From: a virus
Taxonomy: Duplodnaviria; Caudoviricetes
Reading direction: 5' to 3' (one strand)
IMG/VR virus record: IMGVR_UViG_2923682817_000001
Location: 1 to 64,000 of that record
Length of the DNA stretch: 64,000 bases
A program made the position numbers and the translations under genes. This document shows, piece by piece, positions 6,559 to 37,437 of the stretch (positions are counted from its first letter, which is position 1; each line of letters starts with the position of its first letter). Below the pieces are notes generated by a model. The model made no database searches, was not told the origin of the DNA, and saw only the letters and a list, made by a program, of their open reading frames with translations.

Positions 6559-8103
6559 TTAGAAAATGGCTTCCTCGTTGGTGTCAGTGCCACCGTCGAA
6601 TTGCCCGATTTTGATGACCACAAATTCGGCCGGATACCTCAGGGCAACCCCGATATCGACGTTCACCCGGCCTGCGTTGATTTCGCTCTGCGGGTTGTTG
6701 TCGCCGTCACAGCGGACGAAGAAGGCCTCGGAATCCGACTTGCCCTGGAGCATTCCGGCCTTGCGCAGCATCGACAGGTAGTGAGTGATCGACAGCCGCA
6801 GCCGGTCCCACAGATCGGGGCCGTTCGGCTCGAACACCGCCCACCGCGACTGGTCGGACAGGGACTTGCGCAGGTAGATGAGGAACCGGCGGACGGGAAC
6901 GTACTTGTCCGGAAGCTCCCGCTTCAGCGTCCTTGAGCCGAAAATGCAGTGGCCGTAGCCGGGGATCATCCGAATGACGTTGATGTGCGCGTCGCCCAGG
7001 ATGTCCAGCTCGGGCTCAGTGAAGCGCGCCTCCGCGGAGAGGACGTTGGCCAGAACCGTCTCGATGCCGGCCGGCGCCTTGGCCACGTGCCGGAAAACAT
7101 CGGTCTTGGCCATCTGGCCGATCACCGCGCCGCCCGGGGGAAGCAGCCGCACCGCACCGAACATCGAGCTCGCGGGATCCGAGCACATCAGCCACGGCCC
7201 GTACACACCCGCGTAGGAGTTGGCCAGCAGCGAGGTCGGACCCTCCACCAGCGCCTGGTAGCCCTGCATCACCTGCGCACTGGTCGCGCCCTCGGCCGCC
7301 CGTGGGCCGTCGATGACCACGAACACGCGGCCGTTCTTGGAGGCCCAGTCGACGATCGGGTTGATGATGTTGGGGTCAGAGATCGCCGGCAGATTGAGAT
7401 CGAACGTCGCGCCCGGCACGTCGGCCAGCAGCTTGGTGTTCTCCACATAGTCATACGGGCCGGTGCCGTCGGCGCCGCCGGTCAGGGTGACCGACTGAGC
7501 CGGGATGATGTCCTTGACCTCGTCGTAGACGTAGGCTTCGGTGATCTTCTTGTTGGTCAGCTTCACCAGCAGCGATCCCGCGTACGGCGAGTTGACGATG
7601 GAGATGACGTAACGCGGGTCGTTGGGGTCGCTCGACATGTCGCCGAACCGCTCGGCTACCCGGCCGTCGTCGATCACCTGCAGATCGAACCGGCCCCGCG
7701 TCGCGCCGGTCGGGAGGATCCGCACGCTCGTGGTGTTGGACCACGATCCCTCGGCCAGGGCGGTCACCTGGAAACCGGCCAGCGGGGTGCCCGTGGTCGA
7801 GTCCATCAGATCTGCCTTGGCCGCCACGGCGTCAGAACGGGTCGTACGCACGATGAAGCACGAGCCGCCGCCGTTGGAGAAAAAGGTGTAAACCGCGTAC
7901 GGCAGATAGGACCCGTTCGAGCCGGAAAAGCCGCCGAACAGGTTGACGTACTGCGCCCAGGACCGAACCCGGGTCGGGATGGTCGGCCCCTTGGGAGCCA
8001 GGCCCACGAATGCGCCGATCGCACGCGAAGCAGATCCGTCGCCACGATTCGCGGGCGCCAGATTCTCTTCGACGTAAACTCCGGGCGTCAAGTAGGTTGC
8101 CAA
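6559..8103 (-). CDS. Tail sheath protein
   Basis: TPGVYVEE, AFVGLAPKGP, KAPAG, YVPVRR, VFEPN, FFVRCD, PAEFVVI motifs. Confidence 0.95.
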   Translation of the reverse strand: MATYLTPGVYVEENLAPANRGDGSASRAIGAFVGLAPKGPTIPTRVRSWAQYVNLFGGFSGSNGSYLPYAVYTFFSNGGGSCFIVRTTRSDAVAAKADLMDSTTGTPLAGFQVTALAEGSWSNTTSVRILPTGATRGRFDLQVIDDGRVAERFGDMSSDPNDPRYVISIVNSPYAGSLLVKLTNKKITEAYVYDEVKDIIPAQSVTLTGGADGTGPYDYVENTKLLADVPGATFDLNLPAISDPNIINPIVDWASKNGRVFVVIDGPRAAEGATSAQVMQGYQALVEGPTSLLANSYAGVYGPWLMCSDPASSMFGAVRLLPPGGAVIGQMAKTDVFRHVAKAPAGIETVLANVLSAEARFTEPELDILGDAHINVIRMIPGYGHCIFGSRTLKRELPDKYVPVRRFLIYLRKSLSDQSRWAVFEPNGPDLWDRLRLSITHYLSMLRKAGMLQGKSDSEAFFVRCDGDNNPQSEINAGRVNVDIGVALRYPAEFVVIKIGQFDGGTDTNEEAIF

Positions 8104-8112
8104 GAAAAACTC

Positions 8113-8757
8113 CTAGACTTCAGGTGCGGTGAAGGACCCGACGACGGCCCCGTCACGGTCGGACTGGTAATCGAAATCGTTGATTTTCCCGGTGACCTTC
8201 TCGACCGCCTCGAAGCGCTTGACCTCATACGGCGAGAATTCGGTGAACACCCGTACGACGTAGTTGACGGAGAACAGGCGCTTTCCGTGAGAGTCGACCT
8301 GGGAAGAAAGCTCAGGGCCGCCCAGCAAATCCAGGCTGGCGATGACGCCCATGGGCTCGATGTGGATGTAGCCGCCGCGCTCGGGGAGCAGGTCTCCGCG
8401 GGCCAGGCGTGCCATGAGCTCGCTCTGCTGCGCCTGCAGCCGCGTAAGTACGCTGACCTGGTAGTCGATGTTGTAAGGGATGGGCCGGTCGCCGTAGTAG
8501 CCCCACCGGTCATCCGGACCGGGCATGGGCCGGCCCTCTTGGATGTAGCGGAAATCGGTGAACCCGCGGCGCTCTCGATCCGACGCCCTAGTCACAGCGG
8601 TGCGCGTAAGAACAATGACGGGATATGTCATTGACGTGTTTTCCGGCTCAGGGGTTGTGAAACGCGCCGGAACAGTCGCCGGACCTGCAGCCGAGGACGC
8701 CTGAATGCCGGACAGCTTCGCCTTGATGGCGGCGTCCTCATTCAAAATCCACGGCAT
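8113..8757 (-). CDS. Tail terminator / neck protein
   Basis: Directly upstream of the sheath gene; PIPYNIDYQVS motif; mainly synteny. Confidence 0.6.
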   Translation of the reverse strand: MPWILNEDAAIKAKLSGIQASSAAGPATVPARFTTPEPENTSMTYPVIVLTRTAVTRASDRERRGFTDFRYIQEGRPMPGPDDRWGYYGDRPIPYNIDYQVSVLTRLQAQQSELMARLARGDLLPERGGYIHIEPMGVIASLDLLGGPELSSQVDSHGKRLFSVNYVVRVFTEFSPYEVKRFEAVEKVTGKINDFDYQSDRDGAVVGSFTAPEV

Positions 8758-8841: not shown

Positions 8842-10443
8842 TCAGCTCACTCCGACGAGCGGCATGAATGGCGAGGGGACACCGATTGCCGTCGGGTCGA
8901 AAGACGCCGGAAGCGCCGCCTGCCCAGATTGATAAAACCCGCGACGGTGCGCCGGACCCGTTGCGGGAATCGCGAACCACACCCCGTTGGCGTCGTTCGC
9001 CGCCGCGGGATACGGAATGGTCAGCCCCGTCATCCCGCCGGCGAGGGCGATGATGTAGACGAAGCGCCCGCCGGCCTCGGCCGCGATCGGAGCCGGCAAC
9101 GCCCCACCACGCCACCCTGCCGCGGTCCACAGGGTGGGGTCGTTCGGCAGCGAGGAGACGAGCGCGCCTGCGTCGGTGTAGAGCCCGAGCACGTTGGGGG
9201 TCGCGCTGGTGGCGTAGGTGCCTCCGTTGCGTACGGCCGCCCACAACTTGGTGATCACGACTCCGGCCGGAATCCACACCCGGGCACCCATCAACGTGTT
9301 GTTGAGCACGCCGCTGTTGCCCATGTACTCCATCGGGTCGGCCGAGGCCGCGAGCAGACCGTAGCCGCTCAGCGGAAAAACAGGCCCCCCGCCTGAGCCG
9401 CCCGGGTGGCTATGGCCGATCGGTGCGTAGGCGGCGTTTCCTTCGGTGAGTGTCAGGTACTGCGGGTGAGGGTCGCCGGCCGACTCATGGGCGGAGATGC
9501 TCGCCGGATCTCCGGGGTCGCCCTTCGGCCCCTGCGCGCCAGGAGCGCCGTCCGCGCCGGCCGGTCCCCTCTCTCCGGTGTCGCCCTTGGGTCCGGCGGG
9601 GCCTGTCTCACCAACCGGACCGGTACTGCCGGGAGACCCAGGGATGCCCGGAGGACCAGTCTCCCCCGCCGGCCCCGCCGGCCCGGTAGCGCCATCTGCG
9701 CCCGGGGCTCCCGGAGCACCTGTCGGCCCGGATGCTCCCTGAACGCCCTGCGGACCAGTCGGCCCAACGGGACCTGTGTCACCCTTCGGACCCTGCGGGC
9801 CGGTAGCACCGACCGGACCAGCCGGGCCGGTGTCACCCTTCGGGCCGGCGGGACCGGGCGGCCCCGCGGTACCTGACCCGGGCGGCAGGGGCTCCCACGG
9901 GGTGCCCTGAATCGGCGCGGTCGCCAGATCCCCCGTCCACCAAGCGGCGAACTGCGGGTCGTTGGCGATGTCTTCCTTCTTCAGCTGGATAGCGTCGACA
10001 CCGACCACGACGTCCCGGGTCTTGAGCTGGCCCAGGACCGCGACCTTCGTGACACGGAAAAGCCGCCCGTCATAGGCCAGCCTGTCGTTGAGGTAGGAGC
10101 CATGCTTGACATCCAGCTCAGTCAGGCCGGTTTTCGTCAGGTGCGAAAACGACGCGGTCAGGTGCAGGGTGTCAGTCCAACTCAGACCCGCGGGCGCCTG
10201 CTCGGCTGGGCCTTCCTCGCGCACCACACTGAGCACCGGTACGGCGACTGGCGCGAAGTAGATCCGGCCGGCGTCGTCGGCCTCGCCGTAGACGTCGTGA
10301 GTCTCCGAGTCGGCCCGGTCATACCGGAAGTACGTGATCTCCTGGCCGTAGACGGTCTGATAGCCCTCCAGCGCCCCGTCGATCTCGTCCGACTCGTAGA
10401 CGGGATCGAAGCGCCCCTTCTTACGGTCCAGGCGGGCCATCAT
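8842..10443 (-). CDS. Neck/head-closure domain fused to a collagen-like repeat and a C-terminal globular domain
   Basis: Start moved to ATG 10443, coupled to the upstream stop; about 40 uninterrupted G-X-Y triplets at about 9510-9875. Confidence 0.7.
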
Positions 10444-11246
10444 CAGTACGGCCCCCAGATCGGCGAGGGCAGGCCGGAGGTGTCCTCGTTCGGAGCATCG
10501 ATGGGCGGCAGCAACCGCTTGGGGTAGGACTCCGGCCCGGACTCGTCGTACTCGCGCTCTCTGAAGACGGGGACCAGGCGGCCGGTGGTACGGCTGACGC
10601 GCCGCAGCGTGGTTACCTGGATACGGGCCATGCCGATGTTGAGCTGCTGACACAAGGTGGCGTAGCGCTCGCGCAGCAGACCGATGTGGGAAACGATCTG
10701 GCTGTAGCGCTGGGACCGCGCCAGGTGCGTTCCCTCGGCCGTCCACACGTCGGTGTCGGAGGCGGCGTCGGTCGCCATGTCCCACAGGGCCTCGATGGTG
10801 GCCAGGACGACCAGCGGCTCTTCCTCCACGATCGGGAGGTTGGCCAGGGTGATCGGCTCGCGCTTGTACCTGATGTGGCCGTTGGTGTCGCGGTAGCGCT
10901 CTGAGGTCTCGGCATCGTGGGTGTGCTGGACGACGGCCGTGGTGATGTAGGCGTCCATCTCGGCGTCGGTGAACAGGCTGTATGCCAGGCCGGAAATCAG
11001 GATGCTCGCGTCCGCGGGGATGGGCGCGGGGAAGGTGATCGTGCCTTCGAGCGGATCCAGCACATAGTCAGCCGGCGTCAGCTCGGTCACCGTGGATCCG
11101 CTCACCAGGTCCACCAGAAGCTGCGTGACGCGGCGCCGGCCGATCTCGTAGGTCGCTTTGCCTCCGGGCAGGGTCACACGGAAGCGCTCCCCCAGGTCAC
11201 CCAGCGCCGATCGGACCTTCTTACGCACATCGCCAATCACAGCCAT
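10443..11246 (-). CDS. Head-tail adaptor-like virion protein
   Basis: Position between head and neck genes; start [12 protein letters not shown]. Confidence 0.55.
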
Positions 11247-17115: not shown

Positions 17116-18717
17116 TCAGCGCCGGCCGTGGAAGGGAGACGAGCTCTGCTCGGCCTCGGGCATCTGGTGGTCGATCGTGAGAATGCAGGCCATCGCGAGA
17201 CTGTCGCAGTAGTCGTCGTGGGCGCCGGCCTCGTTGGGGGCCTCGGCCAGCATGTAGGGGCCGGTGTAGACCAGCTGCAGGTCGCTCATCTCCTGAATGA
17301 ACCGGCGGTAGGTGCGTAGCTTCTTGGTCTTGGCATGCGCCGGCCAGGACACCTTGCCGCGCTCCATGAGGGCCTGGAGGTGCTTCCAACGCGTGGACTG
17401 GTCGGGCCGCTGGCTACCGAGCTCTACGACCTCTACGTGCGGCATAAGGATCTTCAGTCGCTCGGCCACCGCGTCACCGACGCCGCCACTGTCCACGCCG
17501 ACGCTCAGCACGTGATAGGCGGACAAAAATTCTACGATGCGGTGGTATTGGGCTTCCCATGTAGTGGTTCCACCGAGGTCAAGCCAGTTGAGGACGCGGT
17601 GCTCGAAGAAGCCGAATTCGTCAGGGTTGTCCCAGTCGACCCAGACCACGGTCACGATGGTCGAGTCTTGCTTGCGCGCAGGGTCGATGCCGACCACGAC
17701 TGGTGACTTGTACCAGGCCTTGACGGTCTGCATGGATCGGTCCCCGAGCTCGTCCAGCCGCTCGGAGGTCGTGAACATGCCCGCCTCCAGCAGCCAAACC
17801 AGGCGGTAGCTCAGTTTGAACTCGTCGGAGTCCACGCCCATCTTGAGCTTCTGCTTCTCGCAGTGGATGTGGTACTTGGGGTTCTCTTTGGCCGCGGCCC
17901 GGTAATCGGCCTCGAAGTGGTCTTGGCGGGCGCCGCGCTTGGTCTGGTCTCGCTTGTTCTGCTGGATCGTGCGGTAGAAGACGTTCTTGGTATAGGTGGG
18001 GGTACCGGTATAGATGTGAGTAGCGTTGGTGCTCGCACCCATCGGCGTGATCGACTTGTCCACCATGCGGTCGTCGGCGCCCTGGCACTCGTCGATCAAG
18101 ATCAAATGGTAGGTTCTGCCCTCGATCGTCGCCCGCGGGTGGCAGGTTTGCCTGCGCACCAGGGAGCCACTGTTCAAGGTCAGCGTGCGGCCCTTGGCCT
18201 TGACCCCGTCCATGATGTCCGGGTCGTTCATGAGCTCGATCGCACGCTCAGACGTCAGCCGCGAGACGATGCGTCCGAAAAGGGTGTCCGCTTGTTCGTC
18301 GACCGGGGCGAACGCCCCCACCCAGACGCCCTCGGCGAAGCCGCCGAGCAGGTTGGGGTAGACCCGTGCCAGCACCGGAAACATGATCATGATTGCGGCA
18401 ATGGTGTTGGCGACCGTTTCCGACTTGCCGGACTGCCGGCTGAATAGTGCGGTCAGGGTCGCGCCATCATTAATGATGACAGACTCTATGATTCGGGCTG
18501 AAAACGGGCGTTGGTATCGATACAGGGGGTGGCCGCTCAGCTCGTCGACCACGACCAGCATCTTGTCGACGATCTCGTCCACCGTGGCCTGTGTGAACTC
18601 GTCCAGGACGACCTCGGTAGCCGCTCGCGCCGCGCGCTCTTCCTCGGTTTCCTCGTCGAAAAGGTCTTCTAGCTCATCATTTGTGAGCTCTGCGTATTCG
18701 GTCGCCTGAATCGTCAT
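17116..18717 (-). CDS. terL: Terminase large subunit
   Basis: Walker A SRQSGKS, Walker B LILIDE, nuclease motifs VGIDPA and HDDYCDS. Confidence 0.93.
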   Translation of the reverse strand: MTIQATEYAELTNDELEDLFDEETEEERAARAATEVVLDEFTQATVDEIVDKMLVVVDELSGHPLYRYQRPFSARIIESVIINDGATLTALFSRQSGKSETVANTIAAIMIMFPVLARVYPNLLGGFAEGVWVGAFAPVDEQADTLFGRIVSRLTSERAIELMNDPDIMDGVKAKGRTLTLNSGSLVRRQTCHPRATIEGRTYHLILIDECQGADDRMVDKSITPMGASTNATHIYTGTPTYTKNVFYRTIQQNKRDQTKRGARQDHFEADYRAAAKENPKYHIHCEKQKLKMGVDSDEFKLSYRLVWLLEAGMFTTSERLDELGDRSMQTVKAWYKSPVVVGIDPARKQDSTIVTVVWVDWDNPDEFGFFEHRVLNWLDLGGTTTWEAQYHRIVEFLSAYHVLSVGVDSGGVGDAVAERLKILMPHVEVVELGSQRPDQSTRWKHLQALMERGKVSWPAHAKTKKLRTYRRFIQEMSDLQLVYTGPYMLAEAPNEAGAHDDYCDSLAMACILTIDHQMPEAEQSSSPFHGRR

Positions 18718-18804
18718 ATAAACCCTCGTTTGTCCTATATTCGAGGGTAAGAAAAAAGGCCTACCGCGTTGTAATGCGGTAGGCCTACGACCAGGTCAGA
18801 CGGT

Positions 18805-19119
18805 CTATATCTTGGTCCGCAACGCCCTCGCGCGGCCGGTCTTGATGCGGTCGTGGACGTCGGGCCGCGGGAGTTCCGCGGCAGCTGCGATGGTCGCCGG
18901 CGCCATGTTGTGCGCGTCGGCCATGTACGTGAACAGGTCCGTGTTCTCGGTGTCGGTGTCCCACACCCACTCCCTTGCAAAAGCACACCAGATGTCGGAA
19001 CAGAACGCCCTGATGTCCTTGTACGCATACCCCATGAACGCCCGGCAGGCGCGGCACTGGACGATCATCAGCTCGCCGTCCTCCGGCTGCTGCGCCTTGC
19101 GAACGGAGATCTTAGGCAC
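18805..19119 (-). CDS. Cys-cluster protein with a C-terminal HTH-like segment
   Basis: CRAC...FCSDIWC; APATIAAAAELPRPDVHDRI. Confidence 0.55.
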   Translation of the reverse strand: MPKISVRKAQQPEDGELMIVQCRACRAFMGYAYKDIRAFCSDIWCAFAREWVWDTDTENTDLFTYMADAHNMAPATIAAAAELPRPDVHDRIKTGRARALRTKI

Positions 19120-19402
19120 CCTCTGACGCCCCCTTCTTCTTCAGTCCGTAGTCGGCCTCAATCTGCTGCAGGCCTTCACGGACCGCGATGACGCAGTCCA
19201 TGGGCAGCAGGTACCCCGAACTCGCTCTCCACTCGGTCGCGCCACCGACCTCCTTGGGGACCTCCACGAAGTCCCGCAGCTCGACGATGTCGTGGCCGGC
19301 GAAATTGAGCACCGCCAGGCGCGTTCTCTTGTCGGGCCGGGCCGCGTGGATCCGCCGCTCGAAGTAGATCTTCCGCCGGCCGACCGGCCTAGTCTCAGCC
19401 AT
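19112..19402 (-). CDS. PC4-like nucleic-acid-binding protein (tentative)
   Basis: IVELRDFV...W..SSGYLLP resembles the PC4 fold pattern; ATG 19402. Confidence 0.4.
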   Translation of the reverse strand: MAETRPVGRRKIYFERRIHAARPDKRTRLAVLNFAGHDIVELRDFVEVPKEVGGATEWRASSGYLLPMDCVIAVREGLQQIEADYGLKKKGASEGA

Positions 19403-19493
19403 CTGTTCTCGTCCCTTCCTTGAGGAATCTACCGCGATACATTCTATGCGTGGCTGGCCGATCAGCACAACACGCAGGGGTTCGTGTCGGCCG

Positions 19494-20722
19494 GGCAGCA
19501 AAAAGCGGCCGGAAGCACGAGCCTTCGGCCGCCATGGTGACACTGTCTTACACCGGCAGCAGCTCCTTCTGAGACATCTGGTGCCGAGCCACCTGCAGCG
19601 CCGCCCGCACGGTGCGCTCCTTGAGCTCGTACGGCAGCCGCGCTGCCACCACACGAGCCGTCAGCACGTCAGCATCTTCACCGGCAGCTGCTGCCGCCTC
19701 CAAGACTGCTGCCACCTGTCGCACATGCTTATCGGCAACGCGCGGCAGCTCGGCGTCAGCAGTCTGCTGCCGCACGGTCTGCTGCCGAGGCTTGGGCGGC
19801 AGCACTGCTTCGACTCGATCGCGGGCGCCAGCGGCAGCAATGACCGGCGGCAGCACGTCGCGGGGCGGGGCCGGCGGCAGCACCGGAGGCTCGTCCGGCA
19901 GCACGTCGGCAGCAGGGACCGGCAGCGGACCACCCTCGGCAGCAAGATCGGCAAGGAACGCGTCCCAGCGCGCGTCGTCCGCCACGGCCTTCTCCTGCTG
20001 CCGCTGCCGGTCCAAGCCCGGCTTGTCGCTGCCGGCAGCAATCGGCAGCACGGCAGCAGGTGCTGCCACTCGCTCGGGCGCCTTGGGCGGCAGCACCGCC
20101 GCCGCGGCGGCCACTGCTTCCGGTCGCTCTGCTGCCGGTGCTGCCGCGGCGCTTTCCTGCTGCCGCTGCTGCCGCCACTGTTCTGCTGCCTGCTGCCGCT
20201 CCTTGCGGTGTGCTTCTGCTGCTGCCATTGCTGCCGTTGCTGCCGCGTCTTCTGCTGCCAGCTCGGCAGCGATCCGCGCCTCCTCGTCGGCCTCGGCTGC
20301 TGCCACTACTGCCGGCTGCCGGGAGAACCAGACCAACACGAGCATGTGGCCGAAGGCGGCAGCAACGAGAGAGGGGATCGGCTTCAAAGCCAGCCGGAGC
20401 CAGAAGTCGGCAGCAAGAAGGCCGTCGTCGATCGCCAGCCACAGTGCTGCCAGGCCGATGGTCAGGACCAGACCGAAGATCGCGCCGAATGCTGCCGACC
20501 GCTTCAGGGTGCGGTGCCCCCGGGGGGTGAGGAAGTAGACGGCGGTGGACGCGAACTCGTAGCCGATGACGGTGATCGGCAGCGTCCAGTCCAAGGCGCC
20601 GAGGTGGATTGCGCGGCCGAGCTGCAGCAGGGAGTCGTAGTTGGTGCTGGCAGCAATGAGCATCGCCGGCGGCGTGATCGCTAGCAGGATCCGCGGGACT
20701 GCTCGGGGCAGTGCGGCAGCAG
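19494..20722. repeat. Dispersed (C)GGCAGCA motif array, both orientations
   Basis: Hand count of about 17 GGCAGCA and about 19 TGCTGCC in 1.25 kb. Confidence 0.85.
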
Positions 20723-20726
20723 ACAT
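19548..20726 (-). CDS. Spread-like (DUF2637/Spd-like) membrane protein
   Basis: Four N-terminal hydrophobic helices, a coiled coil, a P/A-rich linker and a helical C-terminus, as in actinomycete plasmid spread proteins. Confidence 0.55.
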   Translation of the reverse strand: MSAAALPRAVPRILLAITPPAMLIAASTNYDSLLQLGRAIHLGALDWTLPITVIGYEFASTAVYFLTPRGHRTLKRSAAFGAIFGLVLTIGLAALWLAIDDGLLAADFWLRLALKPIPSLVAAAFGHMLVLVWFSRQPAVVAAAEADEEARIAAELAAEDAAATAAMAAAEAHRKERQQAAEQWRQQRQQESAAAAPAAERPEAVAAAAAVLPPKAPERVAAPAAVLPIAAGSDKPGLDRQRQQEKAVADDARWDAFLADLAAEGGPLPVPAADVLPDEPPVLPPAPPRDVLPPVIAAAGARDRVEAVLPPKPRQQTVRQQTADAELPRVADKHVRQVAAVLEAAAAAGEDADVLTARVVAARLPYELKERTVRAALQVARHQMSQKELLPV

Positions 20727-20819
20727 CGTGGGGACCTTCCGTGGTGCGCGTTCTTGGTGGATTCGGGCCACCGTAGCGATCACCCCGTCTCGGTGTACAA
20801 CCTCCCAGCTCAGCGACGT

Positions 20820-21108
20820 GCCTCTGATGGCACATTCAGCACGGCAGATGGCGCAAAAAAGGCATGATTGGTGCGCCGAAGGCCGCTCGGATCGCCTAAA
20901 ACCGCCCTGCTTCGCACAGTCCAAAACAGGCTCTGAACTGCGACAATAGGACTGTGCAGGGAAGCTGTTAGACCACCGAAAGATTCTGATTGACAACTTC
21001 CAGTTGTGCGCCTAGTATCCTAAAAGCGCAGGTAAAGCGCCTGTGCGTAGGATTCTAGGGCACAAAAAAGCCACAAGGCCGTGCCCATCTGGAAGGGTTA
21101 GGGGCACA
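20820..21108. other. Candidate attP region
   Basis: Lower-GC gap next to the integrase with arm-like repeats (GGCGCAAAAAAGGCA about 20850, GGGCACAAAAAAGCCAC 21058-21074, GGGCACAA about 21102) and a GCACAGTCC/GGACTGTGC inverted pair. Confidence 0.5.
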
Positions 21109-22395
21109 ATGGCGCGCAAGAAGCTGATCCGGGGCATGGGCAGCCTGAAGAAGGTCGACTCCTGCAAGCACGGCGAGGACGCGCGCTGCAAGTGCAAGTG
21201 GCTCGGCCGGTGGTACGACGCGGCCGGCGAGCCCACCAAGCTCACCTTCGACGACTACGACGCAGGCTTCGAGCACCTGTTCCAGGAGTACACCAAAAAG
21301 CGCCAGGGCGTCGGCAGGATGTCCAAGGCCAAGGGCAAGGCCCCCTTGTTAGAGGTCTACGCCATCGAGTGGCTAGCCAGCATGCGCGACCTGGAGCCCG
21401 CCAGCAGGCGCAACTACAAGTCCATCCTGGAAACCCACGCCTTCCCCAGGCTCGGCAAGGTCCCCGTCAACCGCATCAACAAAGATCAGATAGCTGACCT
21501 GATCGACTACCTCTACTCCGAGGACCCGGAAACGGGGAAGGACCCGGTCTACGAGGGCACTGTCAAGAATCTCATCATGTACGTCCTGCGCCCGATTTTC
21601 CGCCAGGCTCAGGCTGACGTATGGCGCAGTGACAACCCCTGCGACGGACACCGGTTGCGCGACGTTCCCGACGCCGAGCGCTACGTCCCCACCCCGGCCG
21701 AGATCCACGACATCGCCCACACCATCAAGCCGATGTGGCGCCTGGCGATTTACCTCATGGCCGGGTGCGGCCTGCGCGAGGGCGAATTCCTGGGCGCCAG
21801 CACCGACATTCGTAAGAAAGACAACCGGCTCTGGATCTACCGGCAGTGGCACCATGAGGGCCGCTGGGCGCCGCTGAAGTACTGCAAGGCGAAAGAGGGG
21901 CGCTGGGTGCCTCTGGATCCGATCGTGGCCGCGGAGTTGGAACGGCACATCGCCGACTACGCGATCCCCGAGGGCGGGCTGCTGTTCCCCTCCCTCAAGA
22001 AGCCCGGCCAGGCGGTCAACAACTCGGTATTCAACCGAGCGCTCAAGGAAGCCTGCATCCGGCTCGGCCTCGACGACAAAGACATCACGGCCCACAACTT
22101 TAGGCATGCCTTCGCCAGCCACGTCATCGACGCGGGCGTCCCCCTGCCCGACGTCTCGCGCATGCTCGGCCACAAGTCCTACGAGACCACCTTCAAGACC
22201 TACTACAAGATGGTCGACCCGTCCTGGGAGCGCATCCAGCGCAACGTCAACACCTACCTGTCCACCGGCATCCCGGTCGACGCCACGCTCGGCGGCGTTG
22301 ACGCCTTCGCCGAAGACAAGCAGGCCGAGGTCACCGATCTGCTGGCCAAGCTCAAGGCCCTGGGCGTCACCGTGACGCTGGAGCAGGCCGCCTGA
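21109..22395 (+). CDS. int: Tyrosine integrase
   Basis: GCGLREGE (R), HNFRH (HxxR), LGH and TTFKTY (Y); N-terminal SAM-like domain. Confidence 0.93.
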   Translation: MARKKLIRGMGSLKKVDSCKHGEDARCKCKWLGRWYDAAGEPTKLTFDDYDAGFEHLFQEYTKKRQGVGRMSKAKGKAPLLEVYAIEWLASMRDLEPASRRNYKSILETHAFPRLGKVPVNRINKDQIADLIDYLYSEDPETGKDPVYEGTVKNLIMYVLRPIFRQAQADVWRSDNPCDGHRLRDVPDAERYVPTPAEIHDIAHTIKPMWRLAIYLMAGCGLREGEFLGASTDIRKKDNRLWIYRQWHHEGRWAPLKYCKAKEGRWVPLDPIVAAELERHIADYAIPEGGLLFPSLKKPGQAVNNSVFNRALKEACIRLGLDDKDITAHNFRHAFASHVIDAGVPLPDVSRMLGHKSYETTFKTYYKMVDPSWERIQRNVNTYLSTGIPVDATLGGVDAFAEDKQAEVTDLLAKLKALGVTVTLEQAA

Positions 22396-30502: not shown

Positions 30503-30742
30503 TTAAATCAGGTGGTCCAGGGCGCCGGCCTTGATGTCGGCCGTCCAGGCGCCGATGTCGTCCGGGGTGAACACCAGGACGTGGCCGGTCGGGTGCTTGG
30601 TGTCCAGCATGCCGACCACTCCCCCGGCCAGCGGGGCGAGGGCGACACAGTTGCTGTTGCCGTGGGAACGGCTGCTCTTTCGCCAGGCAACGTCGGGCAG
30701 CTCGGTGGCGAGCATGCCGTTGCGGATATGGGTCATCTGCAT
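30503..30742 (-). CDS. DUF397 protein (standalone)
   Basis: WRKSSRS..NSNCV.LA...DTK.P...LVFT...IKAG. Confidence 0.9.
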   Translation of the reverse strand: MQMTHIRNGMLATELPDVAWRKSSRSHGNSNCVALAPLAGGVVGMLDTKHPTGHVLVFTPDDIGAWTADIKAGALDHLI

Positions 30743-30839
30743 GATCCCAGGATATTTGGAGGTGGCAATACCTGTCTATGGCCAGCTATTGCTGTATCGC
30801 ATCAGGCCTGGTAGAGACCCCCTGCCTAGGGTCAGCTAC

Positions 30840-31097
30840 ATGGTCGAATTTTCGGCGACGAAGCCGAAGTGGAAGCAGATCGCGGGGATACTGCGCGAGC
30901 GGATCCGCACGGGCGAGTATGGGCCGGACACGCTCATCGTCGAGCTGCAGCTGGCTCAGGAGTTCGAGGTCGCCCGCCAGACGATACGCAAGGCGATTAC
31001 GAAGTTGCGTGACGAAGGGCTGCTGGAGACCGAAGTCGGGGTCGGGTCGTCGGTCCGGGCCGGTGCGGTCGAGAGGCTCCAGGCGGTCGACGAGTAG
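30840..31097 (+). CDS. GntR-family winged-HTH regulator (DNA-binding domain only)
   Basis: WKQIA..LRERI..GEY.P...LAQEFEVARQTIRKA...LRDEGL...G.GS.V. Confidence 0.88.
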   Translation: MVEFSATKPKWKQIAGILRERIRTGEYGPDTLIVELQLAQEFEVARQTIRKAITKLRDEGLLETEVGVGSSVRAGAVERLQAVDE

Positions 31098-31296
31098 CTC
31101 GCCGCCGGCCGGCTCGATGGGATGCGGGCGGGCCGACGGCTCGTTTACGGCTGGCCCGTAGAGGGTAGATCATGATCTTGTCGTTGCCTACCAACTATAT
31201 GCAATTGGTCGTTACGAACCCTTCTGACCTGATCAGAGCGTTGATACTCTTCGGCTCGCGACGCACCTGTGCGCATAAGGGGTATTTGGAGCTGAC

Positions 31297-31653
31297 ATGG
31301 CAAAAGAACTTCGGGAACAGCTCGTCGACGATTTCGACGGGAGCGAGGCGGTCGACACGATCAACTTCGCGGTGTCGGGCTTCGCGTACGAGATCGACGT
31401 GTCAGAGGAGCACCGCAAGGAGTTCTGGGAGTTCATGGAGCCGTGGATGAAGACGGCCCGCCGTCAGGCTGTGCTGCGTCGCCCGCGTCGGTCGGGGATG
31501 CGTGGACCCGTCTGGGCGGATTCTCAGCGGGTACGGGCCTGGGCCAAGGAGGCCGGCTTGGAGGTCAGCGATAAGGGCTACCCGTCGCACGAGGTGCAGA
31601 TGAAGTTTGTGGCCGCCTACGCCAACGGGGATCTGCCCGACAAGTACTTGTGA
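31297..31653 (+). CDS. lsr2: Lsr2-family protein
   Basis: LVDDFDG..A..TINF.....YEID dimerisation domain; VRAWAKEAGLEVS DNA-binding domain. Confidence 0.88.
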   Translation: MAKELREQLVDDFDGSEAVDTINFAVSGFAYEIDVSEEHRKEFWEFMEPWMKTARRQAVLRRPRRSGMRGPVWADSQRVRAWAKEAGLEVSDKGYPSHEVQMKFVAAYANGDLPDKYL

Positions 31654-31894
31654 TCTGTCCGCTGACCGGACGTTAAGAGAGGGGAGTCCCCCGGATACCA
31701 CCCCGGGAGACTCCCCTTCTTCCTGACCAGCCTCGACAGGGCTTGAAGAAGGGTTCCTCCCCCTGATCGGTTGGTAGCTGGTGACTCACACCCAGGGAGT
31801 GCGCCCGCAACATCGACAAGCGGCGCTCGGTGAGCTGGAAGGACTCTACAGCCAGTTATGCGAGGCTTACCAGATCACGACTGTCCGTTCTGGA

Positions 31895-32020
31895 CATATT
31901 TCATCTGTTTTTAACTTTTTGCCGTTGACCTGGTCAAACTTTTTACTTCGAGCCTCCGCGCACCCTGATTTTGATCTTGTTTTTTGATCGTCTTTTGTCG
32001 TTGACCTTGTATTTGATCTT
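31895..32020. repeat. AT-rich repeat tract, candidate replication origin
   Basis: TTTGATC at 31970, 31983, 32012; CGTTGACCT at 31923, 31999; AACTTTTT at 31913, 31937. Confidence 0.55.
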
Positions 32021-32600
32021 CCCCACTCTCCGGGGCCGAGAGCCGGGAAGCGCAGGGCGGGGATCTCCCCTCCCCTCGCGCAGACCTGGGCCAAAAAAGG
32101 CGGTCTACACGAGGTGAGGGGAGACACGGAACTCTCCGTACGCCGCTTCGCGGTCGCTTGGTTGGTCACTCGTGCCGGACCGGGCATTACCACCGGTCCC
32201 AGGGCGAGATGTTGTGCAGATCTAGTACCCGGCCCCATCTCGATGGGTCGTCATCCGTAGTACGACTGGACTGCCAGCCCCAGAGTGAGCCTGTCTTAGC
32301 GTGCGCTCCCGGCCTCGCGGCGTTCACCCCAGCCCCGGGCCGAGCTCTACCGAAACGGCGGTCGCACCCGAGTACTGAAGCTAGGGAGCCAACCTCTGGC
32401 TGCCTACACATTCAGTAAGACCGTTTACCCCCTCTCGGGGGCTCTCTCTACACCCGGTGGCCAAGCCGGTGGGAGGTTACTCATTCCGCCTTTTCCTCCG
32501 CTGGCGGGACTGCCATCCACCGAGCCTCGTACGAGGGGCAGGGACTGCGCAGGGGCATGTTTCAGAGGGTGCCCACTCCCCAAAGTTGTTCGACGCGGCC
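32021..32600 (-). ncRNA. Candidate long structured RNA
   Basis: No convincing ORF; many hairpins; long stem 32064-32124 with G-U pairs on the minus strand; promoter-like TGTACA-17-TAACTT upstream. Confidence 0.4.
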
Positions 32601-32772
32601 GAAGTTACCAGGTATGGCCAGGTATGTACAGCTGTTGCCAGCTGCAAGATCGGGGCAGCCTCGCGAGCGACCGCGGCGCCCGAGCGCATCGGGCCGGCCC
32701 CCGCACGCGGCCGTCCGACAGACATGACAAGGCCCCCACCACTCGGCGGGGGCCTTGCCTACGTCTCGGGAT

Positions 32773-33015
32773 CTACCGGCGCCGCTGCGCCTTCCTGTGC
32801 CGCTTCTGGGGCGTCTTTGGCTTCTCCTCTGGGTACGGCTCCAACCCCATGGCTATACGCCGGGCGTTGTGCATCTTGTACCGAAACCTGAAACCGCCTT
32901 GACCGCGTCCACGCGGCTCACGGCACGGTTCGCCGGCCACCGCGGCGCACTTCTGCGCGGTGCAGAACACCGTGCCCCGCTCGTAAGGCTGCTGCGCCAC
33001 TCGTACCGTTCCCAT
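32773..33015 (-). CDS. Small Cys/His zinc-finger-like protein
   Basis: C....C.A..GEPC...H..R pattern; basic tail. Confidence 0.55.
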   Translation of the reverse strand: MGTVRVAQQPYERGTVFCTAQKCAAVAGEPCREPRGRGQGGFRFRYKMHNARRIAMGLEPYPEEKPKTPQKRHRKAQRRR

Positions 33016-33157
33016 GCGGCGATTCTAGCTGGAAGATCGCGCCGGAGCCACGGGGAAACCTGCTCACGAATACCGGAATGGTGTCCATAGACAGGTATGG
33101 CCAGCCACTAACACCTATAAGATGCACATAACATCCACCAAGAACAGCGGAGTACCC

Positions 33158-33715
33158 GTGACGCATCACACCGGATCCCACTACACGCCCGGCTACGGCT
33201 ACCCGCCTGCACCGGTTCCGTCCCGCCCGGGATTCAGCGGCTTGACCGTCGTCCTCGTCGCCTCTGGAACGCTCCTGTCCGGCTGCTTCGGCGGATTCAT
33301 CATCGGCAGCGTGAGCGGATCCACCGCGGCGGCTCCCTCCGAGCGCACGACCCTCCCGCGGGCCAGCAAGGCCGCCGTGCCGACCCACAAGTCCACCCAG
33401 CCCCAGGCGGCCGAAGCCGAGGGCGAGCCGCGCAAGCCTCGCCCTGGCGACTTCCAGCTCTCGGTTAAGACCCTGAAGCAGTCCTGTTTCAGCTCGGCCG
33501 GCTGCCTCATCACCTTTCGAGTGGTGCCGTCCTACCGCGGGCCGGCCCTGGGTGACCAGCAGTACACCGTCACCTACAAGGTCACCGGCGGTAAGGAACC
33601 GAAGATCGGATCGTTCACGATGGTCGGCGCCCAGCTCTCCTACGACCGCCAGGATTTCCTCTCCACCAACTCCTCCGCGGACCGGCTCGCTGCCGAGGTG
33701 ACCGAGGTTCTCTGA
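33158..33715 (+). CDS. Membrane-anchored/exported protein
   Basis: Hydrophobic helix, S/T/P linker, QSCFSSAGC domain; preceded by a leader-A-like sequence. Confidence 0.75.
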   Translation: MTHHTGSHYTPGYGYPPAPVPSRPGFSGLTVVLVASGTLLSGCFGGFIIGSVSGSTAAAPSERTTLPRASKAAVPTHKSTQPQAAEAEGEPRKPRPGDFQLSVKTLKQSCFSSAGCLITFRVVPSYRGPALGDQQYTVTYKVTGGKEPKIGSFTMVGAQLSYDRQDFLSTNSSADRLAAEVTEVL

Positions 33716-33772
33716 CCCCTGGCAGCAGGAAGGCCCCGCACCAAGCTGGTGCGGGGCCTTCCTCGTTCCTGG

Positions 33773-34333
33773 TCAGATGCGGAAGATCCTCGCGGTGCCG
33801 CGCTGGGCAGAGTAGACCCAGTAGTTGCGGTGGCCGGTTGCCTCTTCGTGGTCGGTCTGCCAGGTGTAGGCGACCTGCTCTTCCTCCGACGCCTCCGACC
33901 GCTCGGGGCAGTGACGACACTCGCTGTAGCAGAACGTCACTACGGCCCGATTGTCGGCCATCTTGTCGACCGGCCGCGCGTGGATCACTTCGCCAGCCGC
34001 GTGCACAAGCTCGCCAGCAGGCTCGGCCCCGGGCTCGGGGGCCGGCGGGGACAAGGTGGCGCCGATGGTGGCGGCGCAGTCGGTGAGGATGGTTTCGGCG
34101 AGCTCCTCCAGGGCAGCCACGTCAGCATGTCGCCACTTGGTGCCGGTCAACCCGGGGAGATCGGCCCGCATGAGGTTTCCCGGGGCGCTTCCGGCCGGGG
34201 CGATGAAGAAGACCGGCGCCTTGCCGACCAGTCCTTCCCGCCGGCCCCGCGGGGTGTTCTTCCACACGATGCGACACCCGGGCTTGGGCAGGCCGTCGAC
34301 CTGGACGGGGCGGCCCTTGTCGTCGGTGATCAC
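33773..34333 (-). CDS. Hypothetical protein with a C-terminal CxxC/H motif
   Basis: CRHC...HEEATGH; coupled to the upstream gene. Confidence 0.65.
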   Translation of the reverse strand: MITDDKGRPVQVDGLPKPGCRIVWKNTPRGRREGLVGKAPVFFIAPAGSAPGNLMRADLPGLTGTKWRHADVAALEELAETILTDCAATIGATLSPPAPEPGAEPAGELVHAAGEVIHARPVDKMADNRAVVTFCYSECRHCPERSEASEEEQVAYTWQTDHEEATGHRNYWVYSAQRGTARIFRI

Positions 34334-34626
34334 TTCTGGCTCCCGAACAGCTCGCGGCCGTCGTGGACGGTGTAGACGATGCCGCTCAGCGTGAACTGGG
34401 CGTTGATGATCTGGGCCATGGCGTCCCAGGCCCGGCTGTCCATCACCGCGGATCCGCGCCGCTCGGGGAGGTCGACGTACTCGACAAGGACGGCCTTGTC
34501 GGCGTCCAGGAGGGTGCCGATGTAGGGGCAGTGGATCTCCCTCTCGACGGCGTAGAGCAGCCTCAGACGGGCCAAGGCGGCGTCTGCGTCGGTATCGCCG
34601 ACAATGGCTTCAGTGATCTCGTTCAT
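34330..34626 (-). CDS. Hypothetical protein (operator-linked, leader B)
   Basis: ATG after CACCGAAGGGAAATCGGG; operator at 34691. Confidence 0.7.
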   Translation of the reverse strand: MNEITEAIVGDTDADAALARLRLLYAVEREIHCPYIGTLLDADKAVLVEYVDLPERRGSAVMDSRAWDAMAQIINAQFTLSGIVYTVHDGRELFGSQK

Positions 34627-35050
34627 CCCGATTTCCCTTCGGTGTTGCGTGGTGCGCCGTTCCTGCTGGCGTGCACCAATACTCTCACGTTAAGGAATCC
34701 AGCGCAACTCATTCCTCAAAGACGCCGTGACCTGGGAAAATGCGGATAATTTATCGATTTCCTAGACAGTGTCAGAGCTACCGCGCCACGCGAGGCGCGG
34801 CAAAAGGCCCCGTCGAAAGACGGGGCCTTTCTTCGTACGCCGTGGCCCCGGGGAGTCCCGTACCCGGAACGGCTCATCCCAGAGCCACGAACCCTGGTTA
34901 CCCTCGGCGGTGGCCGGTCAGGGGAAGCGACCGGAAAAGGCGCACGTTATGGGGATGACACACGCCGCGCACCGCCGAGGGTCCGCCGACCAATCAACCT
35001 GCCTATCCCTCGGGCTCACGGTCACCAACCGGCCGGCGGAGTCTTGTGGG

Positions 35051-35446
35051 TCAGTACATGAACAGGAACCAGACGGTGCGGCCCTTGGCGCCGGCCTCTT
35101 CTCGAACCCCCCAGGCCTCCGACCGATCGCTCAGCAACTTCATGCCTCGGCCGCTCTCGGCGAGCTCGTCGACTTCGAGCACCTGCGGCGCCGACGACTC
35201 CGATCCGTCGTCGCGGACTTCGACGAGCACGTAGTCCGGACCGGTCTCCAGTCCGACGGCGACTTGCCCACCGTTTCCGGAACGCGTGTGGCGAACCGCG
35301 TTGGTAACGAGCTCGGAGACCGCCAGCACGAGGTCATCATGTAACGGGTGTTCGCTGCTGATCAGATCTCGCACCCAGTCGCGCGCCTGGCCGGGGGCCT
35401 GCGTTCCGCCCGGAACCTGGTACTCGGAAAGCAGTCCGATCATCAT
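35051..35446 (-). CDS. HATPase_c anti-sigma-like ATP-binding protein
   Basis: LAVSELVTNAVRH, VEVRDDG, ESGRGM.L, WGV, VWF. Confidence 0.9.
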   Translation of the reverse strand: MMIGLLSEYQVPGGTQAPGQARDWVRDLISSEHPLHDDLVLAVSELVTNAVRHTRSGNGGQVAVGLETGPDYVLVEVRDDGSESSAPQVLEVDELAESGRGMKLLSDRSEAWGVREEAGAKGRTVWFLFMY

Positions 35447-35654
35447 ACTTCGACCCTTTCGCCAGCCCCGATTTCGCTCAATGGTCAGCCCAAGGAGGCC
35501 CCATCCAGGCGAGAGCGCGAACGCCCAACATGCGGTGGAGGACCCGTTACTCTCGATCGTGACGGTTCGACACGCCCATGTAAAGCCGTTCGATCGGAAC
35601 GGTTCGAGTGACTTACGTTCCAAATCCAGGCAAAGGGTGCAGAAGGGGTGCGGT

Positions 35655-36512
35655 ATGGGTGGTAGATCAAGCCCGACCATCGGGCGGCGGCAGCTCGCTG
35701 GAGAACTCCGCAGGCTACGTACGGCAGCCAAGATGACTCGCGAGGATGTAGCCGAGCAGCTCGACTGCGCGCCGGCCACCGTCACGAAGTTCGAGAACGC
35801 AACGGCCGCGGTCAGCGTGGCCACAGTCGCAATGCTCATGGAGATCTACGGCGTCGCCGGCCCCGCTCGCGACGACATGCTGAAGCTTGCCCGCGAGGCC
35901 CGCCAGCGTGGATGGTGGCACCAGTACAGCCGAGCGATCCCAGCATGGTTTTCCGTCTACGTCGGCCTGGAGGAAGCAGCATCGGAGATCAGCTCCTGGC
36001 ACCCCGAAGTGCTTGACGGCCGACTTCAGACCGAAAGCTACATGCGCGCCCTGATCAGCGCCGAGCTGCCAGTCCCCGACGCCTCGGAGATCGACCGCCG
36101 GGTGGCCGTACGACTCAAGCGCCAGGAACGCCTACACGAATCCGAACCGCTCAGCCTCTGGGTCGTCATCGGCGAGGCCGCGCTGCGCCGGCTGGTCGGC
36201 GGCCCCGAAACCATGCGCGAACAGCTCGAACACCTTGTGCAGCAGTCCCTACTGAACAACGTGACCATTCAGGTTCTTCCGTACAAGACCGGCGCCTACC
36301 CCGGCATGCACGGCGGATTTCACCTGCTCCGCTTCCCAGAAGCCACCGGGGACGCCATCGTGTACGTTGAATACCAGCAGGGGTCCATTTACCTGGAGAA
36401 GAAGCCAGACGTGGCCTCCTATGATCGTCTCTTCGACCACCTCGTGGCCAGGGCTCTCGGCCCGGACGAATCCCGTGCCATGATCACGCAGGTGGCCGAG
36501 GAATACTCGTAG
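35655..36512 (+). CDS. XRE-HTH plus DUF5753 regulator (WhiJ-like)
   Basis: RRQLAGELRRLR, GWW, LQTESY.RA, RLKRQ, GEAAL, QVLP, YLE. Confidence 0.92.
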   Translation: MGGRSSPTIGRRQLAGELRRLRTAAKMTREDVAEQLDCAPATVTKFENATAAVSVATVAMLMEIYGVAGPARDDMLKLAREARQRGWWHQYSRAIPAWFSVYVGLEEAASEISSWHPEVLDGRLQTESYMRALISAELPVPDASEIDRRVAVRLKRQERLHESEPLSLWVVIGEAALRRLVGGPETMREQLEHLVQQSLLNNVTIQVLPYKTGAYPGMHGGFHLLRFPEATGDAIVYVEYQQGSIYLEKKPDVASYDRLFDHLVARALGPDESRAMITQVAEEYS

Positions 36513-36541
36513 CACTACCAGCAGAAGGGTGCAGGTGACCT

Positions 36542-36796
36542 ATGGCACCGAAGCAGTGGCGTAAGGGCAGTCTCAGCGGCAACGGCGGCGCGGACTGCGT
36601 CGAAGTGGCGGTCGTTCCCGGCAACGACCCCGAGGTGGCCGAGAACAAGGCCGGTGAGCCCATCGTCTACCTCGTCCGCGACTCCAAGAACCCCGAGGCA
36701 GCCCCGCTGTCGTTCGACAAGCGCGAGTGGGCCGCATTCATCGGCTCGGTGAAGCTCGGCGAGTTCGACCCCGAGGCGGAGCCGGCGACCGTCTGA
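36542..36796 (+). CDS. DUF397 protein
   Basis: WRKGS.S.NGGADCVEVA...VRDSKNP...EW.AF...VK.GEFD. Confidence 0.92.
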   Translation: MAPKQWRKGSLSGNGGADCVEVAVVPGNDPEVAENKAGEPIVYLVRDSKNPEAAPLSFDKREWAAFIGSVKLGEFDPEAEPATV

Positions 36797-36974
36797 TCAG
36801 CTCGTTGATAGGCCCTCCCCGGGATCCGGGGAGGGCCTATCTATTTGGAACGGAACCTATGTGGGAGATTTCCGGAACGGTTCGATCCGAACTTGTTACC
36901 TTGAACGGATAGTCCGTAGTCGCTCGTGGCCGTAGCGTCATGGGCGACCGATCACCAACACGGAGGTGTGCACC

Positions 36975-37193
36975 ATGTCTGCCAGAGAAGCCGAGGTTAC
37001 TGTTGAGGTCGTCCCGGGAGACCACCCGTCCGTCCCCCCTCACAAGCGCGGAACCGACGCGCAGATCTGGCTCGTCATCGTCGGCAATGAGGGGCTGCTG
37101 GCCTTCAACAAGGCCGAATGGACGGCCTTCATCGGCGGCGTCAAGGACGGCGAGTTCGACATCGAAGACGCTGACGAGCTGACGACCGTCTAA
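36975..37193 (+). CDS. Divergent DUF397-like protein lacking the WRKSS/Cys motif
   Basis: Keeps VEV and LAF..AEWTAFIGGVKDGEFD only. Confidence 0.75.
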   Translation: MSAREAEVTVEVVPGDHPSVPPHKRGTDAQIWLVIVGNEGLLAFNKAEWTAFIGGVKDGEFDIEDADELTTV

Positions 37194-37236
37194 CCGCACA
37201 CGTCCGTACACAACCCCATCAGTGAGGAGCAAGACC

Positions 37237-37437
37237 ATGGATCTGACCGGTGCGAAGTGGCGCAAGAGCAGCCGCAGCAACGGCAACGGCGGCGAGTGCG
37301 TCGAAGTGGCCGACAACCTCCCCGGCGTCGTCGGCGTGCGTGACTCCACGGACCCGAGCGGGCCGGCCCTGGCCGTCAGCCGCCCGTCCTGGGGCGCCTT
37401 CATCCGCGCCGCGAAGTCGGGCATGTACGACGCCTGA
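37237..37437 (+). CDS. DUF397 protein
   Basis: WRKSSRSNGNGGECVEVA...VRDS.DP.GP.L. Confidence 0.93.
   Translation: MDLTGAKWRKSSRSNGNGGECVEVADNLPGVVGVRDSTDPSGPALAVSRPSWGAFIRAAKSGMYDA

Follow-up and report, generated by a model that had tools for sequence, protein, structure and literature searches.

Why does one short DNA word recur dozens of times within a single phage gene, in every reading frame and in both orientations? The question is raised by gene X, which lies in the 64,000 nucleotides of Caudoviricetes virus DNA analysed here (positions 1 to 64,000 of IMG/VR record IMGVR_UViG_2923682817_000001; hereafter the window). An earlier reading of the window from its letters only (hereafter the original prediction) had proposed a cis-acting transfer, partition or membrane-tethering locus at this place. 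Selection acts on the DNA of gene X, and the excess of the motif is not explained by the protein. We are confident that the copies form a selected array of protein-binding sites, and gene X very probably has a second role as a docking place for a DNA-binding protein, which is most likely X itself. For the whole reading, in which the array would be read by the C-terminal domain of X and phage DNA would be tethered at the membrane for spread or inheritance, we estimate a probability of about 0.45. The features concerned are the following.

19203..20720, both strands: array of 47 GGCAGC sites with consensus CGGCAGCA; 45 lie in gene X and 2 lie 3′ of it (19494 and 19203)
19548..20726, minus strand: gene X, 392 amino acids (aa) (P0001); ATG at 20726-20724 after GGAAGG, TAA at 19550-19548
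20307..20726, minus strand: N-terminal membrane domain, aa 1-140, distantly DUF2637/SpdB2-like by a profile through intermediates
19761..20306, minus strand: linker rich in Ala, Pro and Gln, aa 141-322, unalignable across lineages
19551..19760, minus strand: C-terminal domain of 70 aa with three predicted helices, candidate reader of the motif
19500..19534, minus strand: hairpin followed by U5, resembling an intrinsic terminator, 16 nt past the stop codon of X (seen by folding)

Motif counts and controls for chance and composition

GGCAGC and its complement GCTGCC occur 47 times at 19203-20715 and about once per kb elsewhere. The word is preceded by C in 36 of the 47 copies and followed by A in 37, which gives the consensus C-GGCAGC-A. 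The original prediction had counted by hand about 35 GGCAGCA motifs, in several frames and both orientations and read as VLP, AAA or RQQ; our count gives 35 seven-mers inside gene X, and these readings agree. The window as a whole contains 50 copies of GGCAGCA/TGCTGCC, 37 of these in kb 19-21. Hexamers in gene X are divided between the orientations (23 sense and 22 antisense) and use all three phases, with AA (11), RQQ (6), VLP (6), VAA (4) and AAA (3) as peptide readings. When k-mers of the region were compared with the rest of the replicon, the top words were GGCAGCA (36 vs 0.37 expected) and CGGCAGCA (27 vs 0.2). Moreover, the richest 1-kb interval holds 33 seven-mers, and every other 1-kb interval in the 10.5-Mb genome holds 7 at most.

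Two simple descriptions of the motif were rejected. It is not a plain CAG/CTG triplet run, since G precedes 46 of the 54 GCAGC in the region. A Chi- or KOPS-like role for the host was discarded because the motif is near its composition expectation and shows no strand skew on contigs C1 or C2 of the genome. Rfam gave no match within 18500-21500.

Independence from frame had been taken by the original prediction as a sign of selection on the DNA, and this view held when chance and composition were controlled. Shuffling of synonymous codons within gene X left 8.0 ± 2.1 seven-mers (maximum 15 in 2000 shuffles), recoding with the codon usage of the replicon left 3.1 ± 1.6, and shuffling of the codon order left 1.9 ± 1.3, compared with the 35 observed. 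A test controlling for amino-acid content had been set beforehand as the refutation, and under the synonymous shuffle the enrichment stayed. In addition, we used a max-hexamer test, in which the maximum over all hexamers is taken in every synonymous shuffle and which is free of motif choice. Gene X gave 45 against 16.9 ± 2.5 (maximum 22 in 300 shuffles; z = 11.1), and z for five other phage genes ranged from −1.4 to 0.7.

The excess persists when the parts of the gene are taken separately. The part coding for the membrane domain has 8 motif copies where 1.9 are expected (none of 3000 shuffles reached 8), the linker part has 30 against 13.2, and the C-terminal-domain part has 7 against 3.0. Codon choice follows the motif, as had been predicted for GCA and GCT, which were thought to be forced here and rare elsewhere: these codons account for 36% and 18% of Ala codons in gene X, compared with 6% and 8% in 11 other genes of the window.

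Related phage lineages and the candidate reader

Seven lineages with DNA were gathered from loci around relatives of the terminase and around relatives of X. They are listed with the motif and its copy number, the z of the max-hexamer test and the sequence of helix 3 of the C-terminal domain.

Window lineage: GGCAGC, 45 in gene; z 11.1; helix 3 RTVRAALQVAR
L024/L011/L012 (one metagenomic lineage): GGCAGC, 35; z 8.8; helix 3 RTVRAALQVAR
L004 (Nonomuraea contig): GGAAGC, 35; z 18.7; helix 3 KQVGNALIVAK
L081: GGAAGC, 35 in gene and 3 in the other 4.8 kb; z 8.6; helix 3 KIISNAVIYAK
L095: weak mixed array, GGCAGC 10 and GGAAGC 9; left out of the max-hexamer test; helix 3 RQVRNVVRIVR
L018/L019: no array; z −0.1; helix 3 RQVCNALRLAK
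L070/L071: no array; z 0.7; helix 3 KAWRNALNEAE

Four lineages keep a dense array, with 27-45 in-gene sites (25-38 per kb). The X homologues of these lineages have 29-36% overall identity to the window protein, and their linkers cannot be aligned. The third base of the motif is discriminated by the strong arrays: the window has 25.9 GGCAGC and 1.7 GGAAGC per kb, and the reverse holds in L004 and L081. Peptides that bear the motif differ between lineages, being AA, RQQ and VLP in the window, GS and AAA in L024, and QEA, AEA and LLP in L004 and L081. The array of L081 was foretold from the KQEA repeats of its protein ahead of retrieval of the DNA, and was then found. In three of the four lineages the coding part for the membrane domain has an excess that none of 3000 shuffles reached (8 vs 1.9, 13 vs 1.7 and 7 vs 1.2). 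In L024, 28 of the 35 sites are on one strand and 8 lie in non-coding DNA past the stop codon; in L004 the array extends to sites upstream of the gene. Hence, the array is not tied to coding.

An array of this kind might have no function, arising as a by-product of slippage or low-complexity drift in a disordered linker, or it might be a decoy that titrates a host factor. The linker is indeed of low complexity and tolerant, two lineages have no array, and Tandem Repeats Finder reports a single degenerate 9-bp tandem at 20129-20246. However, the remaining copies are dispersed, inverted copies are impossible by slippage, and the sites occupy both strands, three phases, the conserved coding part for the membrane domain and the non-coding flanks. 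Retention of the array across lineages with unalignable linkers and discrimination of a single base by the strong arrays also speak against this explanation, which we consider highly improbable.

Selected binding sites raise the question of what reads them. Most likely the phage itself encodes the reader, since the motif recurs in different samples and hosts and its form changes from lineage to lineage. No neighbour other than X and the integrase is common to the array-bearing loci; the small open reading frames ahead of the terminase are lacking in L004 and occur in the array-less L018. The best candidate is the C-terminal domain of X, since no other predicted DNA-binding domain accompanies the array in every case and since helix 3 of this domain varies with the motif. 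As judged from sequence and a structure model, we regard binding of the motif by this domain as about an even bet. AlphaFold2 models the domain as three helices at 10-25, 35-41 and 48-66 (predicted local distance difference test score 83.5), with RTVRAALQVAR in helix 3. The folds nearest to the model in a Foldseek search, none of them significant, are homeodomains, Rex and HrcA, which are DNA-binding helix-turn-helix folds. Helix 3 is identical in both GGCAGC lineages while their C-terminal domains are only 35% identical; such pairing of helix 3 and motif is what co-evolution of a reader and its sites would give.

Four hydrophobic stretches in the translation (about aa 12-29, 45-66, 78-99 and 117-134, with a basic loop at 67-77) may be membrane helices, in which case a putative cytoplasmic C-terminal part would follow them. 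In the family alignment, the membrane domain is followed by a linker that cannot be aligned and by a conserved C-terminal domain of about 65 residues. For X, no family was returned by the Pfam and PHROGs scans, and a word-indexed protein search returned X only, as alanine-rich words swamped its candidate list. The N-terminal domain of X found no match by tblastn in the collections of phages and plasmids, nor did a plasmid DUF2637 protein among the phages. A profile of the 140 N-terminal residues, built from five phage homologues, found 39 proteins among 1.84 billion, and of the 38 that were scanned 17 matched DUF2637 at E ≤ 0.01 and 9 scored above the curated cut-off. Language-model look-alikes of X in the Atlas are DUF2637 clusters (score 0.88), which we take as a lead only. 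Thus X is, by way of intermediate sequences, a distant DUF2637/SpdB2-like membrane protein. On conjugative plasmids of Streptomyces, the transfer operon includes the DUF2637 gene, at the place of SpdB2, beside traA, traB and a gene for a GntR regulator. The description of gene X as spread-like was right in this sense.

The Pfam DUF2637 model (PF10935) matches four places on contig C2 of the same genome and none on C4, the contig that contains the window. A chromosomal DUF2637-like gene of the host (C2:1676967-1678256) and its relative at 390-1425 of locus L080 (374-382 aa) have 16-18 copies of CCGTACG in the gene and in the DNA after it. These are mostly the palindrome CCGTACGG, and 150 random chromosomal windows have 15 at most.

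Replicon, integration site and gene neighbourhood

The window is the first 64 kb of C4, a contig of 105,521 bp with 65.5% G+C, compared with 70-72% in the accompanying replicons. C4 is the complete genome of a temperate contractile-tailed phage (myovirus) infecting a mycelial actinomycete. It encodes sheath, tube, baseplate, capsid, portal and large terminase, together with PolA, DnaB, primase, RecA, RNR, ThyX, an O-like initiator and a DnaC-like loader, and its tail genes continue across the contig ends. The features next to gene X are as follows.

21043..22395, plus strand: tyrosine integrase, divergent from X
20993..21005, strand not assigned: attP core of 13 bp (ACAACTTCCAGTT), identical to C2:5417024-5417036 (attB)
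17116..18717, minus strand: large terminase, downstream of X and of two small open reading frames (ORFs; 19112-19402 and 18805-19119)

Gene X is thus placed between integrase and terminase, and not in a transfer operon of the plasmid type (traB, traA, GntR regulator). The window, L024 and L081 share the divergent pair of integrase and X upstream of the terminase. The TraB/FtsK or ParAB genes for which the original prediction would have searched the rest of the replicon are absent: the genome has 14 FtsK-domain matches, none of them on the 105.5-kb C4, and neither ParB_N nor ParA was found on C4, with ParA present on C1, C2, C3 and C5. A self-contained clt/TraB or parS/ParB system is therefore excluded.

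The attP core was mapped by aligning contigs of three public runs over 17-24 kb, and these branch precisely at 20993-21005. In run X1 the phage-to-phage path has a k-mer depth of 70-85, and two contigs that leave the phage at the core have depths of 7.2 and 9.25; their loose ends are both flanks of C2:5417024-5417036, that is, hybrid junctions. Since the contigs show both the free attP path and hybrid junctions, the prophage is present both integrated and free. In this one run the k-mer depth of free phage DNA exceeds that of the integrated junctions about tenfold, a ratio derived from contigs that is not a copy number. The attB site lies inside a chromosomal ORF of 522 aa, and the assembly keeps the phage as a separate contig beside an empty attB. 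The original prediction spoke of a virion-forming element that may also spread like a plasmid; the element does form virions, and in these contigs its free DNA stands beside an integrated copy. The host genus comprises 40 genomes, one of which is also in the family sample of the Nonomuraea genome carrying L004 (same GTDB family), so that the host is a relative of Nonomuraea and not demonstrably Streptomyces.

The core precedes the start codon of X by 267 bp and the start of the integrase by 38 bp. Upon integration, X and its array come to stand at one prophage end and face inward to the late operon, from which the hairpin at 19500..19534 separates X; a consensus terminator scan did not list this hairpin. 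A promoter-like site for the integrase (20990-21018; TTGACA, 17 bp, TAGTAT) spans the attP core and would be split by integration.

Such a position could suit a regulatory or architectural array for a phage helix-turn-helix (HTH) protein or another regulator. It might form a roadblock or silenced domain at the prophage edge and in this way keep X under autoregulation, protect the late operon from read-in, or tune integration and excision. The array begins 278 bp from the attP core at the prophage end, directly upstream of the late operon, X has a terminator-like hairpin of its own, and binding sites within the gene are expected to impede its transcription. However, neither operators nor integrase arm sites are known to come near 47 sites over 1.5 kb. 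Integrase arms carry repeats to either side of a core within a few hundred bp, whereas GGCAGC is absent on the integrase side and all sites are on the other. In L004 a separate repeat upstream of X is a better fit to an operator or arm role, and we consider a regulatory function of the array unlikely. This second repeat family, AACGTGTC, occurs five times upstream of X, at positions 20-260 of L004, partly as inverted pairs, and may represent operators or integrase arm sites.

Proximity to the terminase suggests another role, that of a packaging (pac) site bound by the small terminase. Known pac sites are composed of short repeats, and the array is 0.4-2 kb upstream of the large terminase gene in all lineages, at the usual place just upstream of the terminase genes. 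Against this, L018/L019 and L070, whose large terminase is 55-70% identical to that of the window, have X and no array, and no small terminase was recognised in the Pfam and PHROGs scans. L004 has no ORF at all between X and the terminase. A pac site is thus a very unlikely explanation. The large terminase of L018 (2332-5004) and L019 (2021-4696) has 890 aa, with an intein-like insert of about 360 aa after the Walker region. In L004, a palindromic repeat of about 20 bp occurs twice in the X-terminase interval (1520-1600), with 49 bp between the copies, which resemble CRISPR repeats.

Several other features of the phage were observed. An ORF of 524 aa (56961-58532, minus strand) matches phrog_887, queuine tRNA-ribosyltransferase (E 4e-58); DpdA-like enzymes insert 7-deazaguanines into phage DNA, and the DNA of this phage may be modified as well. 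The genes of the O-like initiator and the DnaC-like loader are accompanied by a 33-bp direct repeat (C4 92079-92183; L002 8079-8183), a probable origin iteron. Copies of a dispersed repeat (about 100-170 bp, 79-84% identical) sit between genes of unknown function at 43906-44072, 45490-45656, 49143-49269 and 53265-53366, one of them inverted. ARAGORN calls a 91-nt tRNA-Cys with anticodon ACA at 33541-33631; both its length and its anticodon are unusual, and it could be a tRNA-like element or a wrong call. Host-like regulators are clustered at 30503-37697, with an Lsr2-like gene (31279-31653), an HTH_31/DUF5753 gene (35235-36512) and three DUF397 genes.

Possible DNA anchoring and comparison with known systems

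According to our proposal, a dense array of recognition sites for a sequence-specific DNA-binding protein overlies and slightly exceeds the coding gene. X would have four membrane helices, a long flexible cytoplasmic linker and a small terminal three-helix DNA-binding domain, and this C-terminal domain would read the sites of the array. Many membrane-anchored copies of X could then hold the phage genome through a single locus at the cytoplasmic membrane or the septal cross-walls, and such anchoring may carry free phage DNA to neighbouring hyphal compartments or spores. Because the element has no ParAB or TraB of its own, anchoring through X and the array might replace a partition or spread system. 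The tethering role is inferred from the only role known for the family, from the lack of ParAB and TraB, and from phage DNA being free as well as integrated. Of the cis-acting transfer, partition or tethering locus of the original prediction, selection at the DNA level and the spread-like gene stood and a TraB or ParAB of its own did not; spread through the mycelium stays an inference.

Different lines of evidence weigh against tethering through X. The PF10935 model matched neither X nor four relatives, even at E ≤ 10. Foldseek gave no match at E ≤ 0.001 for the C-terminal model (best E 1.5). Comparison of the C-terminal domain with the C-terminal HTH of plasmid DUF2637 proteins by hhalign gave a probability of 0.3%. 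The pairing of helix 3 with the motif is seen in four lineages that form two clades, and common descent by itself could produce it. L018/L019 and L070/L071 have the full protein including its C-terminal domain and no array, and L095 has a weak mixed one, which indicates that the protein works without a dense array. The depth of free DNA may reflect spontaneous induction rather than plasmid-like carriage. SpdB2 of pSVH1 is reported to bind double-stranded DNA without sequence specificity (PMC4447253). Finally, when SpdB2-like genes of plasmids were compared with 300 shuffles, 3 of 7 exceeded all shuffles and 1 tied the maximum, and the other 3 did not.

These plasmid genes were studied for arrays of their own. 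In pJV1 (L087) the SpdB-like gene (666-1781) contains 16 of the 22 GCTCAC of the plasmid, in both orientations and all phases, where synonymous shuffling gives 3.8 ± 1.6. The DUF2637 gene of pWTY27 (L088; 5597-6694) has 18 CCGCGA, and a 15-kb Streptomyces plasmid has 23 CGACAC within its DUF2637 gene and just upstream. In the NBC_01506 plasmid the SpdB2-like gene has 17 CGACAC where 8.9 ± 1.7 are expected. An intragenic CGACAC array was noticed in the SpdB2-like gene at 7442-8598 of locus L086. Max-hexamer z values of seven plasmid SpdB2-like genes were 5.5, 5.1, 3.8, 3.3, 2.8, 1.4 and 1.4, compared with −0.3 to 2.6 for six traB genes and −0.3 to 1.9 for five other genes. The array signals of the plasmids are modest and partly dependent on peptide repeats.

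The published clt repeats are elsewhere on these plasmids. Nine follow traB immediately in pJV1 (11107-11143 and 33-81), and the clt word TGACACC of pWTY27 is at 9805-9869; in both cases they are compact, non-coding, beside traB and apart from the arrays of the SpdB2-like genes. The array of the window is therefore not a clt of the known kind. It also differs from one in that its sites spread over 1.5 kb in both orientations on a replicon without traB.

Another possibility is that the array acts like a clt for an FtsK/TraB-type translocase supplied in trans, either by the host or by an integrative conjugative element resident in it, and that this enzyme would move phage DNA from one compartment to the next. 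What defines a clt is its short repeats, which TraB recognises (PMC4447253, PMC3583192); moreover, the family of X works with TraB on plasmids, and the host chromosome has several ORFs with an FtsK domain (478-557 aa), two of them beside DUF2637 genes. However, the phage replicon has no such gene, and the published clt loci are non-coding, lie beside traB and fit 5-9 repeat copies into about 120 bp or less. On the host chromosome the motif shows neither an excess nor a strand skew, and its retention in phages of different samples and hosts fits a phage-encoded reader better. Reading in trans by a translocase is quite unlikely in our view.

If anchoring by X is taken together with the plasmid arrays, SpdB2-type proteins in general might be sequence-specific DNA anchors with a cognate centromere in their own gene. 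The plasmid arrays apart from clt would then be the missing cis site at which Spd proteins recognise DNA for intramycelial spreading, and temperate phages would have borrowed the module to move or keep free genomes without virions. We consider this extension possible, though clearly less likely than not. If it is true, the phage family represents an extreme form, in which 35-47 sites reshape the linker, and phage genomes may spread or be inherited independently of virions in filamentous hosts. How Spd proteins recognise and move DNA in the mycelium is an open question of actinomycete conjugation, in which only TraB-clt is understood, and an element-specific array embedded in a gene offers a concrete and testable cis site for the Spd machinery. 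Moreover, constraint at the DNA level rewrites the protein here, as codon choice and even the amino-acid content of the linker track the motif; gene finders and codon-based tests of selection would misread such genes.

Proteins that bind sites within their own genes are already known from SpdA2-sps (PMC4170104), as are site arrays that position DNA. New are the scale and setting, with about 47 asymmetric sites in all frames of a gene for a membrane protein, the switch of specificity across phages, and the echoes in plasmid spd genes apart from clt. Full-text searches found no description of such arrays, in a coverage that leaves out many subscription papers, including the main TraB paper.

The closest known counterparts of X are SpdB2/DUF2637 proteins, of which actinophage homologues are already in print (PMC4447253). 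SpdB2 of pSVH1 is an oligomeric membrane protein with four predicted helices that forms pores and is needed for intramycelial spreading (PMC4447253). Its four-helix membrane domain, long linker and DNA-binding C-terminal end have counterparts in X, where the four helices and DNA binding are predicted, and the plasmid genes have intragenic motif arrays too. Unlike these proteins, X is distant from the family and has no direct Pfam match, its C-terminal domain has no detectable homology, and its replicon has no TraB; its array is 2-3 times denser than those of plasmid SpdB2-like genes, and DNA binding by SpdB2 is reported as non-specific.

Two systems on which the original prediction had drawn are both in print, namely recognition of 8-bp clt repeats by TraB (PMC4447253) and binding of a Spd protein within its own gene (PMC4170104). 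In the latter case SpdA2 of pIJ101 binds the palindrome sps inside its own coding region, where the sites shape the peptide, and loss affects segregational stability. However, SpdA2 is small and soluble and has a zinc-finger motif, and its site sps, a palindrome of 12 bp, is present in 1-3 copies, whereas the window has an asymmetric word of 6-8 bp in about 47 copies within the gene of a membrane protein. The clt/TraB systems of pJV1, pWTY27 and pSVH1 resemble our array in that short repeats particular to each element act in cis when DNA is moved in mycelial actinomycetes. They differ in copy number and place, since the 47 copies of the window, in both orientations, are inside a gene.

Dispersed short sites also recruit DNA-positioning proteins in ParB-parS, RacA-ram of Bacillus subtilis and Noc, sometimes at the membrane or pole. 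The phage replicon has no ParB fold and no ParA; compared with these systems, reader and membrane anchor would be one polypeptide, with its sites in its own gene.

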